A DNA stretch of 19,068 bases from a virus (taxonomy: Duplodnaviria; Heunggongvirae; Uroviricota; Caudoviricetes): the IMG/VR virus record IMGVR_UViG_2529293141_000023; one strand, given 5' to 3'. Each line of letters opens with the position of its first letter. Position 1 is the first letter of the stretch. The position numbers are program-made. Positions 9,601-12,600 of the stretch are shown in pieces.

Positions 9601-12600
9601 CAGTTTTTTGCGCATTTTTTCAGGGATTTTTCACCCCATCGAAGAGGCTTCCAAGGGGCTGTGAAGTGGGTAGCATTTTGCTGTGATGGAAGGACTACCG
9701 CTACTGTCTGATAATGGTGACGGAGGCCGCTATGTTCGGCTCTGATTGCAGCCTGCCGTATATTCACCAATTTACCTGGCTGTTATTTCCATAACCCGTA
9801 ATGTCGCCGATCCCGTCTGATTCCCATATCGTCAACAGTCTTATTTACAGCATCCTGAAGTTCGCAAGGCATATTTCCCGCCGTCTGGCTATATGCTCTC
9901 GCTGCGGATCGGTGAGGGCCGGAATGGTGCAATTGACGGCGAATGTATACGCATCAATGCTACAGATGTGGTGCTGGTGGACGGGCAATAAAAAACCCTG
10001 AATAACTCCGCTGGGTGCTTCAATTGCACGGGGCGAAATCATTCAGGGTCAGCCGTAACGGGCCTCTGTACAGAGGGCTTCAGTTGCCCAGAGATGAGCA
10101 CCCGCTACAGCCTGCTGTGATAAGCCGCTTTACAGTGAGCTTCAATTGCTCAAAGAGGCGCGTTTTTATCACAACCTGACCGCGATAACCTTCTGCACAG
10201 AGGGCTCCAGTTGCCCAAAGGGGAACATTCTTATCGCGGCATGACGAAATCACCGTGATGTTTTCGTCGTTCACTCATCCCGATGTGTGGGATCAGATAC
10301 ACCGGAATGAGTGCCGAAAAACCGTTGAATGGCTTCATTCAGTCGGGCTCCAGTTGCCCGAGGAGAACACCATCAACGGCTTTTCGGTGGTGATTATAGC
10401 GAATCGCGATAATTGAGCAAATGCGGCAATGAGATGCGTATCACGGTAGCGCTAAATCGTCGCCTGCATCACTGAAGCTGTAATTTCGCCATTCATCCTG
10501 TGGATTAATCCCCATCTCTGCCAGCGTTCTGTCAGCGGCCTTTTTCACATCGCCAAAGGTGACGAACTGCTCAGGCATACGACGGGATTTAATGATACAT
10601 ATCGCCCGACGTCTGGCAGCTTCCTCGCGTTCCCTGTCCGTTTCTGCATGAAGAAGAACCTCAGTCCATCGGGTCGCCGCACGTCGCCATAAACCGCGCT
10701 CCTCAAGTTTCTGTGCCACGCTGTCAGCTATCATCACCATCGTCTCCGGTTGTTTGCTGCTGGCTGTTCTGCTGCTTAATTTGCGCCAGTCTCCGTTTCA
10801 GTAGTTCACTGGCGACTGATTTATCTTCTTCCGTGACTTCGCCGCAAGGCTGCCCGTTCAGGTCATACCGAGCACCACCAGCGATAACAGCATTCAGGTA
10901 TCTGGTTGTGTGGATATACGATATTAACGCGCCGCGCAATACGCCGTGACCAATCGGCAATTCCCGTTCCTTAGCGTCCTTAAGCACATCACGGATCACG
11001 CCAGTTTTCAGGGGCTTCATATTCTCCACGTTGAAAATCTCGGGCCAGTATTCAGCCAGGCGGTTAATCCGTCTGTGGTTTTTTTCGCTGCCGCTTTGTC
11101 ATGTGCTGCCACGGTATGCGCCGTGATGGTTTACGTACTGTCTGGTCCTGTTGTGTGGTCTGCTGGTTCATGTTGTGCTCCTGTCGCTCAGAACGGAATA
11201 TCATCACCGTAAGGGTCATCACCTCCCGCTGGTGGCTGATTTCCCTGCTGTCCGGTCTGTCGTTTTGCTCTGTCCAGTGCTTCGGTCGCCTTCCCCTGCT
11301 GCCCCCGCTTCCCGCCAGGACGCGCCGAACGGGCACTGATTACGCTGTCAGCGATAACCTGCCAGCCCTGCCGTATTTCTCCGTTCTGTCCGGTCCACTG
11401 ACTGATCTGCATGTTACCCGCCACGCTGATAAGGTCGCCTTTTTCATGTCTCGCCAGCGCGTCGGCCTGCTTACCAAATGCCAGGACTGATAGCCATAAC
11501 GTCGCCTGTCCGTCCTGTGCCTGACTGCATGGCAAAGATACCGCCATACGCGCCAGCGTCATCGGTGTGCCCTTGCTGGTCTGTTTTTCCTGCGGGTCGT
11601 CCACCAGCCGCCCGTAAGCTGCAATCTGTGCTGTCATGGTCTGCGCTCCCTGTTCCGGTACTCCTGGATAATACCCATTGTCATATCGAATAAATCACAT
11701 GCCGCTTTTTCTGCATCTTCTGCTTTCAGGTCATACAGCGTCATGAAATGGTGAGTGATTGCCCGTGCGGCTCTTTTGCTGTTTGCTGCATATTGCTCAT
11801 AGATTTTTTCTGCCCGTTCCTCAATATTCAGCCGGAACTCTTCACGCTCAAACAGGTCACGGTGCATCAACGCCAGCGAGTCATACAGCCATGTCACATC
11901 GGCGTATACCGTTCGCTTCCAGACAATCACGATCGGGATATGATTTTCATCGCAGTAATGCAGATGTTTTCCTGGCACTAAAAGCGTTGGCCTGCCACGG
12001 GCAGATACGAACTTCACCACGGAATTATGGTTTTTTGTGTGCTTCGCCGTCATGATTCAGCCCCCGAATTGCCGTTATTACTGTTGCTGTTCACCGGATA
12101 CCAGGCAAAAGACCCCTGCTCACCTGAGAGCGTGAACTTTTCATCAGGCAGATACAGACACGCGCAATAGCCTTCATCGGATGGGTGCGGACCCATACCA
12201 AGCTCACTGGTCAGCACGGGTAAGATTTCGCGGCGGGTGTTCCCCGCACCGAAATAATCAACCTCACAAAGCGCCCATGCAGCAATCGGGCTGTACCATT
12301 CCGTGCCGTCGTCGTCTCTGAACTTCGCCCACCAGCCAGCTACCGCAGGTGAGATATTTTTAACAGTAATTTCACTCATGAATTCATCCTCTCAATTTAT
12401 TTTTTTATATATATACAAAAACACGTCGTCCCAGTTGTCCCAGTTGTCCCAGTTGTCCCACTTACACATAATCCATTGATTTAATTAAAAATACACTCCG
12501 AAAACTGGGACAACATTAGCCGATTTTGGGACAACATGAGGGGTTTTATGTTGTCCCAGTCACCAGCCAGGGTAATTAACGCTCGTTGTGTCGTCCCAAA

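Follow-up and report, generated by a model that had tools for sequence, protein, structure and literature searches.

The window analysed here, the whole 19,068-nt stretch of IMG/VR record IMGVR_UViG_2529293141_000023, contains a PICI-type satellite integrated at tRNA-Gly, with five small genes lying next to its replication origin (Table 1). The island extends from 6564 to just beyond 19068 (~12.7 kb): similarity to a near-identical relative (L001) begins at 6564, and in that relative tRNA-Gly, actS and xdhA come next after the integrase; the tRNA gene adjoins the integrase in a second relative (L002) as well. In the terms set out for Gram-negative PICIs by Fillol-Salom et al. 2018 (PMC6092414), the element has an integrase with an att site, AlpA beside the integrase, a primase followed by an iteron origin and a length in the range of 10-15 kb. 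The origin holds repeat families D2, D4, D9, D11 and D12 and inverted repeats I1-I15, in agreement with the PICI origin organisation described in that paper. The stretch 6564-19068 has no structural or lysis genes: neither the scanned ORFs nor the annotation that PGAP gives for a 99.7%-identical island copy contained a family of either kind. A capsid-like gene is present at 3133-4209, but this position is beyond the att core and belongs to a neighbouring element.

Table 1 Features of the island and of the five-gene block in the window.
Feature	Coordinates	Strand	Remarks
att core (tRNA-Gly 3' end), far island end	6564-6581		18-nt TGGAGCGGGCGAAGGGAA, identical to the L001 tRNA-Gly end
Hairpin array, just 3' of perC	10051-10380	-	Three tandem 62-64-nt units and one degenerate unit
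PerC-family regulator, 99 aa	10740-10441	-	97 aa from the PGAP start at 10734
FinO/ProQ ORF as first listed, 101 aa	11029-10724	-	GTG start at 11029
3' part of FinO/ProQ gene	10724-11078	-	+1 frame relative to the gene start
Homopolymer run, frameshift site	11079-11085		T7 on the plus strand, A7 on the coding strand
5' part of FinO/ProQ gene	11086-11171	-	Frame 0; start codon and basic N-terminal extension
SSB, 149 aa	11637-11188	-	OB fold, acidic ...GDDIPF tip
139-aa ORF	12053-11634	-	Regularly upstream of satellite SSB
109-aa ORF	12379-12050	-	First gene after the origin
Replication origin	12400-12730		GTYGTCCCA iterons, direct and inverted sets around AT-rich stretches
DUF927-type primase-helicase	12749-14887	-	Directly upstream of the origin; PF06048 1.3e-41; phrog_1139 'DNA primase' 3.5e-144
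rgdR homologue (DUF4222), damaged	14919-15179	-	PF13973 1.7e-23
AlpA-family regulator	17068-17271	-	PF05930 1.7e-20
Tyrosine integrase	17815-19068	-	PF13356, PF22022, PF00589; adjoins tRNA-Gly beyond the window end

Several parts of this island are damaged. In the rgdR homologue the RGD motif reads CGD, and a loss of 4 bp compared with L002 shortens the product from 99 to 86 aa and means that the gene no longer overlaps the primase start; PGAP likewise marks the gene as frameshifted in the 99.7%-identical island of strain 2015C-3121. Two perC paralogues have been deleted, and the C4 RNA region that relatives possess is absent here. Because these lesions come in addition to the FinO frameshift described below, this copy of the satellite is most likely in decay. 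No packaging or capsid-redirection gene is recognisable between 6564 and 10440, and the status of the element as a mobilisable satellite would rest on its backbone genes; since several of these are damaged, this copy may no longer be mobilisable. A Q-family antiterminator is encoded downstream of PerC.

A sequence-only reading had described the block as a cargo operon of five co-oriented, translationally coupled genes within a satellite, combining an SSB, a FinO/ProQ-domain protein and a PerC-family regulator. Its ORFs, all on the minus strand where it had placed them, its domain assignments (PF00436, PF04352 and PF06069 all score well above cut-offs) and the satellite context (integrase, AlpA, DUF927 primase-helicase, iterons and tRNA-Gly att core) are upheld, whereas the integrity of the FinO gene, the cargo status and the proposed LEE switch are not. 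Translational coupling is apparent at three junctions: ATGA overlaps (n=2) link the 109-aa ORF to the 139-aa ORF and the latter to the SSB gene, and the FinO stop and PerC start overlap by 11-17 nt. It breaks down between SSB and FinO as first drawn, but the 158 nt that seem to separate the two are the 5' part of the FinO gene, which is out of frame. The gene spacing suggests that all five genes form one operon.

The two ORFs ahead of the SSB match no Pfam or NCBIfam family in profile searches. The sole match of the 109-aa ORF is phrog_27268, a family without assigned function, and its product is predicted to be all-beta. For the 139-aa protein, fold comparison gave no informative match and a profile search of 1.84 billion representatives for remote homologues returned 59 matches; scans of 28 remote relatives detected no Pfam family, apart from one weak DUF7821 match, and no PHROG. 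Small genes ahead of the SSB differ between island lineages and are unrelated to one another. The SSB itself combines an OB fold (PF00436, 55.3 bits, cut-off 26, E = 7.8e-15; TIGR00621, 61.4 bits, cut-off 53.95; phrog_44, 4.6e-40) with an acidic C-terminus, PYGDDIPF, and shares 86-87% identity with its counterparts in Sp7/EcCIEDL933 and EcCICFT073. It is also the most widespread part of the block, which is matched somewhere in 985 of 5426 complete E. coli genomes: in the matches sampled, those that are partial cover the SSB gene. All but one of the 1198 block-matching places in these genomes (1197) are chromosomal. A defence or anti-defence role for the block was considered and dropped, as PADLOC returned no match for the five proteins and their neighbours.

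The FinO/ProQ ORF matches PF04352 (68.7 bits, cut-off 27, E = 5.1e-19) over profile positions 24-108 of 109 only and scores below the cut-offs of NF003434 (ProQ) and NF010317 (FinO). Its frame contains no ATG, GTG or TTG upstream of GTG 11029. The true start of the gene is ATG 11171, 16 nt past the SSB stop and with AGGAG 7 nt upstream; translation from this codon gives MNQQTTQQDQTVRKPSRRIPWQHMTKRQRK, in agreement with the N-termini of the intact homologues (138-155 aa). This frame closes after 35 codons, at a TAA at 11064-11066 (stub 11171-11064), because the homopolymer run is A7 where a relative, STEC2018-607, has A6, encoding RKN in the pairwise alignment; all intact homologues read ...RQRKN(R/H)RR(I/V)NR... 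across the frameshift point. Judged by its reading frames, the FinO-domain gene is inactivated here by a one-base insertion (A6 to A7). Four complete genomes also carry A7, since the block is 100% identical in them over 1939 bp, and in a genome with the identical block PGAP calls a 98-aa ProQ at the FinO locus. A complete FinO domain in a single frame is found in intact relatives but not here, where helix 1 is not translatable from any start in the 3' frame.

A conceptually repaired protein of 148 aa aligns with ProQ-NTD 5NB9, FinO 1DVO and RocC 7RGU from residue ~31 (INRLAEYWPEIF, helix 1), and keeps equivalents of ProQ K35, R58, R69, Y70 and R80 in the alignment with 5NB9. In ProQ, K35, R58, R69/Y70 and R80 are RNA-contact residues that mutagenesis has found to be important. 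The earlier proposal that the FinO-like protein acts on RNA is not supported for this copy, in which the frameshift takes out the basic N-terminus and helix 1. On the strand opposite the 5' region of FinO, at 11057-11085, there is a terminator-like hairpin with a T-run, which the relative does not conserve and which was treated as a chance occurrence.

The PerC-family regulator covers positions 1-88 of the 90 in PF06069 (100.3 bits, cut-off 22.6, E = 7.2e-29) and also matches phrog_994 and PHROGs annotated as 'transcriptional activator', while its score against the ANR family NF033650 (18.7 bits, E = 0.0011) lies below the cut-off of 32. It is 50% identical to PchE, 42% to the PerC of a Citrobacter island, 40% to an EDL933 PerC-family protein that is probably PchD, and 35% to PchA, which by sequence places it closest to the PchE group. 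PchE, a group 3 PerC homologue of EHEC O157:H7, has the same length class and the same PICI slot directly after the SSB; the acidic C-terminal tail of the island protein differs from that of PchE.

Comparable blocks occur in other islands, including the two E. coli PICIs that have been characterised by experiment, EcCICFT073 and Sp7/OI-51. EcCICFT073 has the order DUF4222, primase, gap, 85-aa protein, SSB, PerC and capsid genes, and Sp7/OI-51 (EcCIEDL933) the order ECs1581 (rgdR), primase, gap, ECs1586, SSB, PchE and capsid genes. In Pantoea islands, a DUF927 primase is followed by a homologue of the 139-aa protein, SSB and PerC; a Citrobacter braakii island carries DUF4222, a D5_N primase, FinO and PerC; an E. 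coli cfPICI carries DUF4222, an AAA_25 helicase, SSB, FinO and capsid genes; and a Serratia island carries DUF4222, DUF927, a 140-aa protein and FinO. A search for related loci in one genome per species returned a single locus, from Serratia. The order shared by independent PICI and cfPICI lineages with different replicases is thus primase-helicase, iteron origin, one or more small proteins, SSB, an optional FinO gene and PerC.

Because the block occupies the same post-origin position in EcCICFT073, Sp7/OI-51 and the Pantoea islands, and FinO-PerC follows the primase in Citrobacter, it belongs to the satellite backbone and the label 'cargo operon' does not fit. We therefore consider it likely that the five genes are the post-origin operon of a PICI-type satellite at tRNA-Gly and were not acquired as cargo; what looks like exotic virulence cargo would be the operon that phage satellites of enterobacteria normally carry after the origin. 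The arrangement is ordinary and has largely been described already, and it is not a new virulence switch: an SSB and PchE were noted in OI-51 and its ED1a and CFT073 relatives (PMC3378721), PerC variants occur on E. coli PICIs (PMC6092414), and PerC has been described as 'commonly found in PICIs' (PMC11773190).

The closest described islands, EcCICFT073 and EcCIEDL933 (Sp7, O-island 51, CP-933C), share the integrase, AlpA, an Icd-like region, rgdR overlapping the primase, the origin, a small protein, the SSB and a PerC homologue. The present island differs from them in its DUF927 primase-helicase, a different small protein before the SSB, the additional 109-aa gene and the FinO gene between SSB and PerC. 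After PerC it carries the hairpin array and the Q-family antiterminator and no capsid or packaging genes. It is integrated at tRNA-Gly next to ETT2, in contrast to EcCICFT073 and EcCIEDL933, which lie between roxA and phoQ.

In a working model of this operon, the SSB would coat the single-stranded DNA that arises once the DUF927 primase-helicase has fired replication from the iterons, and its host-like DDIPF tip could recruit host replication proteins. The 139-aa protein, by guilt by association with the SSB, may be an accessory of the SSB or replication step. PerC would act as a small transcription activator or anti-silencer for the island's own programme, with the genes towards the Q-type antiterminator, or helper genes, as candidate targets; any effects on the host LEE, curli or flagella would then be cross-talk. 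An intact FinO protein (138-155 aa, with its basic N-terminal extension) might chaperone a transcript of the island or of the helper, by analogy with the plasmid FinO-domain proteins that control replication and transfer via antisense RNAs.

Two other accounts of the block have to be weighed against a post-origin operon. The sequence-only reading had pointed to the leading regions of conjugative plasmids, an analogy for which the SSB is the sole support. Here the SSB and its neighbours would be an establishment or anti-defence module that protects incoming DNA, like ssb, psiB and ardA on conjugative plasmids, which we regard as highly improbable. The SSB does resemble leading-region ssb genes as a mobile-element copy that keeps the host-interaction tip, and it is flanked by two adjacent proteins without known function. 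The resemblance stops at this point, with no PsiB, ArdA or other anti-restriction family, no transfer genes and, as noted, no PADLOC match; the leading-region combination of ssb with psiB, ardA or other anti-defence genes by an oriT on a plasmid is not what is found. The block instead lies directly 3' of a theta-type iteron origin, in a chromosomal element with integrase, AlpA and primase, and satellites, as far as is known, enter cells as double-stranded DNA. FinO-domain genes are indeed common on conjugative plasmids (there are matches in at least 5000 plasmid records, with 3983 conjugative ones among the matches listed), but the island FinO is encoded by a satellite in the chromosome, is frameshifted here, and shares only ~37-46% identity with its plasmid counterparts across 65-73% of its length. 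The second account treats the block as virulence cargo: on helper induction the PerC-like protein would activate ler and the LEE, and the FinO-like protein would add post-transcriptional control. We judge this unlikely. Group 1 homologues (PerC, PchA-C) activate LEE1 (PMC7369912, PMC3378721) and the island protein is a full-length member of the PerC family, but its greater identity to PchE than to PchA does not place it with that group. The main effects of PchE are repression of curli and adhesion and a rise in flagellar genes; over-expression of PchE increased ler 2.1-fold, a modest effect, and pchE expression drops on SOS or prophage induction (PMC7369912). Some PICI-coded PerC homologues are stated to activate the LEE (PMC6092414), whereas LEE1 fusions are reported not to respond to the PerC-like genes of EcCIEDL933 and EcCICFT073 and to be repressed in the case of EcCIMP1_025 (PMC11773190). 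EcCIMP1_025 is likewise a PICI-borne PerC-family protein with weak ANR-family similarity in its annotation, but it silences LEE1-lux in C. rodentium and is encoded at another site, on an island reported to be phylogenetically distant from other E. coli PICIs (PMC11773190). The results of Porter et al. 2005 are summarised differently in the passages of PMC11773190 and PMC6092414 that deal with them. A possible LEE role of PICI-borne PerC homologues was published in 2012 and 2018 (PMC3378721, PMC6092414), so the regulator does not provide a new LEE link, and its nearest relatives do not favour LEE activation; the PerC gene name alone is no ground for calling it a LEE activator. Relatives with an intact block do occur in O111:H8 and O157 strains. 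In 2015C-3121, the one genome with the identical block in which selC, pheV and pheU were inspected, these three canonical LEE sites hold other islands (espI/iha/btuB at selC, microcin/afaD at pheV and subAB at pheU); a literature search for this strain gave no match. The block is also kept in islands of Pantoea and Citrobacter braakii, in which we know of no described LEE. Moreover, the FinO gene is frameshifted, and RgdR, the known LEE activator of such islands, is present here in truncated form and with the CGD motif, which is inactive in ED1a.

A further question is whether the FinO gene might still be functional, through +1 or transcriptional slippage at A7 that yields the 148-aa protein or through an active product of 98-101 aa, with the run as a possible on/off switch. 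A +1 shift on the first AAA (A AAA AAA C) restores exactly ...RQRKNHRRINRL..., the downstream frame is open to the normal stop with conserved residues kept, and the A7 allele occurs in at least four complete genomes. The identity of these four genomes across the block, however, suggests that the allele probably goes back to one event, and all other retrieved FinO alleles are the in-frame version. At seven adenines the run is on the short side for slippage to be efficient, and the sequence shows no evident stimulatory element. Helix 1 and the basic extension are both missing from the truncated ORF, which would have to start at a GTG or an internal ATG, neither with a convincing ribosome-binding site, and further genes of the same island are also broken. 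A functional gene is improbable on these grounds, though slippage in translation or transcription could still yield a little full-length protein from the A7 allele, and loss of function by the insertion is the reading we retain.

In other satellites, FinO proteins (138-180 aa) share a basic N-terminal extension and the motif TKRQRKNRRR(I/V)NRL, and their genes lie between the replication module and PerC on PICIs and cfPICIs of several Enterobacterales genera; among phage genomes, only 4 records contain relatives of the island FinO. We tentatively suggest that these proteins might form a distinct clade of RNA chaperones devoted to the life cycle of satellites. Their candidate targets would be regulatory RNAs of the satellite or helper, for instance antisense RNAs of the C4/IsrK type from the Icd-like region, or the hairpin array in the present lineage, although we hold this to be less probable than not. 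If it were so, the copy in the window would be a natural loss-of-function allele. FopA resembles the repaired island protein in combining a minimal FinO domain and an N-terminal extension of positive charge (PMC7491321); it too is encoded beside a replication module and acts on plasmid replication control via Inc RNA (PMC9977716). FinO-domain genes recur at one fixed place on PICIs and offer a compact system, which already includes a natural frameshift mutant, in which to ask how an RNA chaperone serves a satellite.

Neither of the RNA candidates considered qualifies as a general FinO partner. C4 and isrK RNAs occur in relatives with and without the FinO gene and are absent from the Citrobacter FinO-PerC island, and so do not track the gene; Rfam searches over the window gave no match at gathering scores and two chance-level matches at E <= 1. 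The hairpin array behind perC is missing, by covariance model, from other FinO-bearing islands, and beyond this island lineage the model matches one prophage gene (LPD38) only. Within the array, the model matches 10051-10112, 10113-10176, 10178-10241 and 10321-10380, and the fold z-score is -7.2 on the minus strand versus -4.2 on the plus strand. Changes on both sides of the stem affect 10 of 17 pairs between paralogues, and the array, together with the 139-aa SSB partner, is a conserved feature worth keeping in view.

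On the minus strand, positions 12379 to 10441 hold five open reading frames. Profile searches identify the third as an SSB (PF00436, 7.8e-15; TIGR00621 above its cut-off; a phrog_44 match) with the tail ...GDDIPF, the fourth as a FinO/ProQ-domain protein (PF04352, 5.1e-19) and the fifth as a PerC-family protein matched over its full length (PF06069, 7.2e-29). Searches of Pfam, NCBIfam and PADLOC matched no family to the first two, of 109 and 139 aa. The genes are tightly packed, with ATGA overlaps at 12053/12050 and 11637/11634 and the FinO stop overlapping the PerC start, and a purine-rich ribosome-binding site precedes every start. 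The three profile confirmations and this packing therefore make the arrangement real and far beyond chance. The sequence-only reading was right on the five co-oriented genes and their SSB, FinO and PerC domains, but the FinO gene is a pseudogene rather than intact, and translational coupling holds in part only, at the overlaps.

The proposed satellite context is borne out by an integrase, an AlpA regulator, a primase-helicase, an iteron origin and an att core, as listed in the table. With a length of about 12.7 kb, no structural or lysis genes and a PICI gene layout, the island appears at the sequence level to be a Gram-negative PICI as defined previously (PMC6092414). An island in Escherichia coli 2015C-3121 is 99.7% identical to the window across 9.2 kb, including a five-gene block that is 100% identical; it adjoins tRNA-Gly, actS and xdhA, with ETT2 secretion genes on the opposite side. 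In that genome (loci L001, L016 and L017, record positions 197-344 kb), the ETT2 region and a split integrase next to pheV seem to have been brought together by an IS3-mediated inversion.

Features of the island and of the neighbouring element, by window position
Feature	Position	Strand	Detail
IS3-family transposase, 3' part	1-633
lambda-E-type major capsid gene	3133-4209		PF03864, phrog_29; 127-aa ORF ahead
two genes	4595-5383, 5424-6038	minus	no family or PADLOC match
att core, 18 nt	6564-6581		3' end of tRNA-Gly
hairpin units	10051-10112, 10113-10176, 10178-10241, 10321-10380	minus	three tandem of 62-64 nt and a degenerate fourth
iteron origin	12400-12730		GTYGTCCCA repeats, direct and inverted sets flanking AT-rich DNA
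DUF927 primase-helicase	right of block, past origin		profile match
DUF4222 (rgdR-type) gene	14919-15179	minus
small genes and AlpA regulator	right of rgdR-type gene		domain match for AlpA
tyrosine integrase	right end of island part		domain matches

Comparison with other islands indicates that the block belongs to the satellite backbone. In both experimentally characterised E. coli PICIs, the order is DUF4222, primase, gap, 85-aa protein, SSB, PerC-family protein and capsid genes (EcCICFT073), and ECs1581 (rgdR), primase, gap, ECs1586, SSB, PchE and capsid genes (Sp7/O-island 51, EcCIEDL933); their SSBs are 86-87% identical to that of the window. Pantoea islands encode a DUF927 primase, a homologue of the 139-aa protein, SSB and PerC; a Citrobacter braakii island has a D5_N primase followed by FinO and PerC; an E. 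coli cfPICI has an AAA_25 helicase, SSB, a 180-aa FinO protein and capsid genes; and a Serratia island has DUF927, a 140-aa protein unrelated to the 139-aa one, and FinO. From E. coli to Pantoea, Citrobacter and Serratia, the post-origin position is thus maintained despite differing replicases, which points to backbone and does not support the earlier description as cargo. Block membership varies, with PerC and FinO each missing from some of the compared islands. Any part of the block is matched in 985 of 5426 complete E. coli genomes, most often the SSB gene, which the partial matches cover in the sampled rows; 85 of the 5426 have a match spanning at least 80% of the block, and four carry the exact five genes.

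The SSB is accompanied by the 139-aa protein in both E. coli and Pantoea, and relatives can do without the 109-aa gene. Confident models predict an alpha/beta fold for the 139-aa protein, which resembles nothing informative, and an all-beta fold for the 109-aa protein, whose structural matches are uninformative. Searched as a profile against 1.84 billion representatives, the 139-aa protein matched short proteins only, and the 28 remote matches scanned fell into no recognised Pfam or PHROG family.

The FinO gene of the window is disrupted. Its ORF (11029-10724) opens with GTG, has no possible start upstream in the same frame, and matches Pfam only from profile position 24. An ATG at 11171, preceded by AGGAG, lies sixteen bases past the SSB stop and opens a frame that translates as MNQQTTQQDQTVRKPSRRIPWQHMTKRQRKKPQTD before stopping at 11064. 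In the 90%-identical island of STEC2018-607, the run CGAAAAAAC is one A shorter than in the window, and PGAP calls an intact 138-aa ProQ/FINO protein immediately past SSB. In the protein collection, most near relatives have 138-155 aa and the distant ones 160-205 aa; both share ...TKRQRKN(R/H)RR(I/V)NRLAEYWPELF... across the frameshift point. The A-run, the missing start and the motif conserved across this point together show a +1 insertion, which makes the run at 11079-11085 an A7. Against solved structures, the repaired 148-aa sequence begins to align at residue ~31, at helix 1 of the FinO fold (INRLAEYWPEIF), and it retains the positions of ProQ K35, R58, R69/Y70 and R80.

Four complete genomes are 100% identical across the 1939 bases of the block; in 2015C-3121, the one of the four examined in detail, PGAP annotates a 98-aa ProQ remnant. 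The lesion is therefore real and no read error, although all four probably go back to one event. Slippage by +1 at the first AAA could restore the FinO protein, which we regard as unlikely. The insertion cuts the basic N-terminus and helix 1 off the remaining domain, so that the active FinO-like protein acting on RNA proposed earlier is not supported. On the plus strand, 11057-11085 forms a terminator-like hairpin with a T7 run, antisense to the 5' part of FinO; it is not conserved in the relative and is probably a chance feature.

Close relatives of the FinO protein come nearly all from E. coli, with Citrobacter second; only four phage records match it, at no more than 43% identity, and plasmid FinO-domain genes reach ~37-46% over part of the length only. 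It resembles FopA, both having a minimal FinO domain and a positively charged N-terminal extension (PMC7491321). Plasmid members of the family target antisense RNAs controlling replication or transfer (PMC9977716). In a 2026 survey of Enterobacter satellites, ProQ and PerC are counted among the accessory genes by annotation only (PMC13612085), and our literature search found no functional work on the satellite clade. In relatives, an Icd-like/Ash region holds one or two genes for C4 antisense RNA (RF01695) and in some cases isrK. The presence of these RNAs does not follow that of the FinO gene, which led us to reject them as its general partner; the hairpin array 3' of perC was rejected likewise, having no general link with FinO genes. 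Neither C4 antisense RNA nor isrK was found in the window, from which the C4/Icd segment is absent. At 15756-16514, the Icd-like/Ash region seen at 17307-19149 of the 2015C-3121 locus L001 is replaced by another, shorter segment that contains small ORFs on the plus strand.

Other parts of the island are also damaged. The rgdR homologue has CGD in place of its RGD motif, the same substitution that left the ED1a variant inactive (PMC3378721), and a 4-bp deletion leaves an 86-aa product uncoupled from the primase start. The window also lacks ~780 bp at about 9845-10042 (8612-9554 in L002, a related island). In relatives this stretch encodes two PerC paralogues, one of 100 aa and one of 55 aa, together with most of a plus-strand gene of 128 aa; of the smaller paralogue, the C-terminal end (...TDPQREHIARRREICLANFRML) persists in ORF 10042-9845. 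With the FinO frameshift, the damaged rgdR, the lost perC paralogues and the lost C4/Icd segment, the island looks like a satellite in decay.

The window PerC shares 50% identity with PchE, 40% with a PerC-family protein of EDL933 that is probably PchD, and 35% with PchA, and its ANR-family score is below the cut-off. The block also occurs in Pantoea and C. braakii islands, and we know of no LEE described in Pantoea or Citrobacter. In 2015C-3121, the one strain inspected, from which the window's own host may differ, all three usual LEE sites are occupied by other islands, carrying espI, iha and btuB at selC, microcin H47, afaD, an ANR gene and a second ProQ gene at pheV, and subAB at pheU; these genes are known as markers of LEE-negative STEC, an indirect sign that LEE is absent. 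The second ProQ/FINO gene, beside the ANR-family gene, encodes 167 aa.

The LEE idea for PICI PerC proteins is already in the literature. Fillol-Salom et al. noted PerC variants in some E. coli PICIs and 'two activators of the LEE' encoded by many (PMC6092414), and Flockhart et al. listed SSB and PchE in OI-51, where the LEE activator is RgdR (PMC3378721). Pick et al. described PerC regulators as common in PICIs, reported that LEE1 fusions did not respond to the PerC-like genes of EcCIEDL933 and EcCICFT073, and showed LEE1 silencing by EcCIMP1_025, suggesting ANR-like action (PMC11773190). PchE acts as a repressor of curli and adhesion and increases flagellar gene expression; its over-expression increases ler only 2.1-fold, and its own expression drops upon SOS or prophage induction (PMC7369912). 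A PchE-like PerC only 35% identical to PchA, PICI homologues without LEE1 activation and a damaged rgdR all speak against the suggested coupling of helper induction to LEE control. A LEE switch in the window is thus unlikely, and the primary role of PerC would more likely lie in the island's own programme.

The ~400 nt 3' of perC (10040-10445, minus strand) fold far more stably than shuffled sequence, with z = -7.2 on the operon strand versus -4.2 on the other. The three tandem hairpin units share the apex GGGC-AAYUGRA-GCCC, and their basal stems vary among copies with pairing maintained by covariation. No Rfam family matched the array, which was found in this island lineage only, apart from one antisense copy in O157:H7, within a prophage gene of 8.4 kb that has an LPD38 domain. 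In relatives the array is flanked by convergent genes, a location like that of REP elements. The residual novelty of the element lies in this array, the satellite FinO clade and the 139-aa partner of SSB.

Positions 1-6563 form an element separate from the island. No complete genome in the collection joins both halves of the window, and 664-6587 is 99.8% identical to tRNA-Gly-adjacent DNA of strains LR-29-1 and EEC_W5. Close to the island's far end, 8256-8654 (minus strand) encodes a Q-family antiterminator (PF06530, 2.5e-50), odd company in a satellite without late genes; the IsrK/AntQ-type circuit of Gifsy-1 is a possible parallel. The non-coding, repeat-rich interval 9320-9640, conserved in relatives, holds about seven copies of TTTTTTGCGCA at a 12-nt period, three of TGATCGRTTTTRTG and two of TGTCACTGTT, and could serve for protein binding, for packaging or as a second origin-like site.
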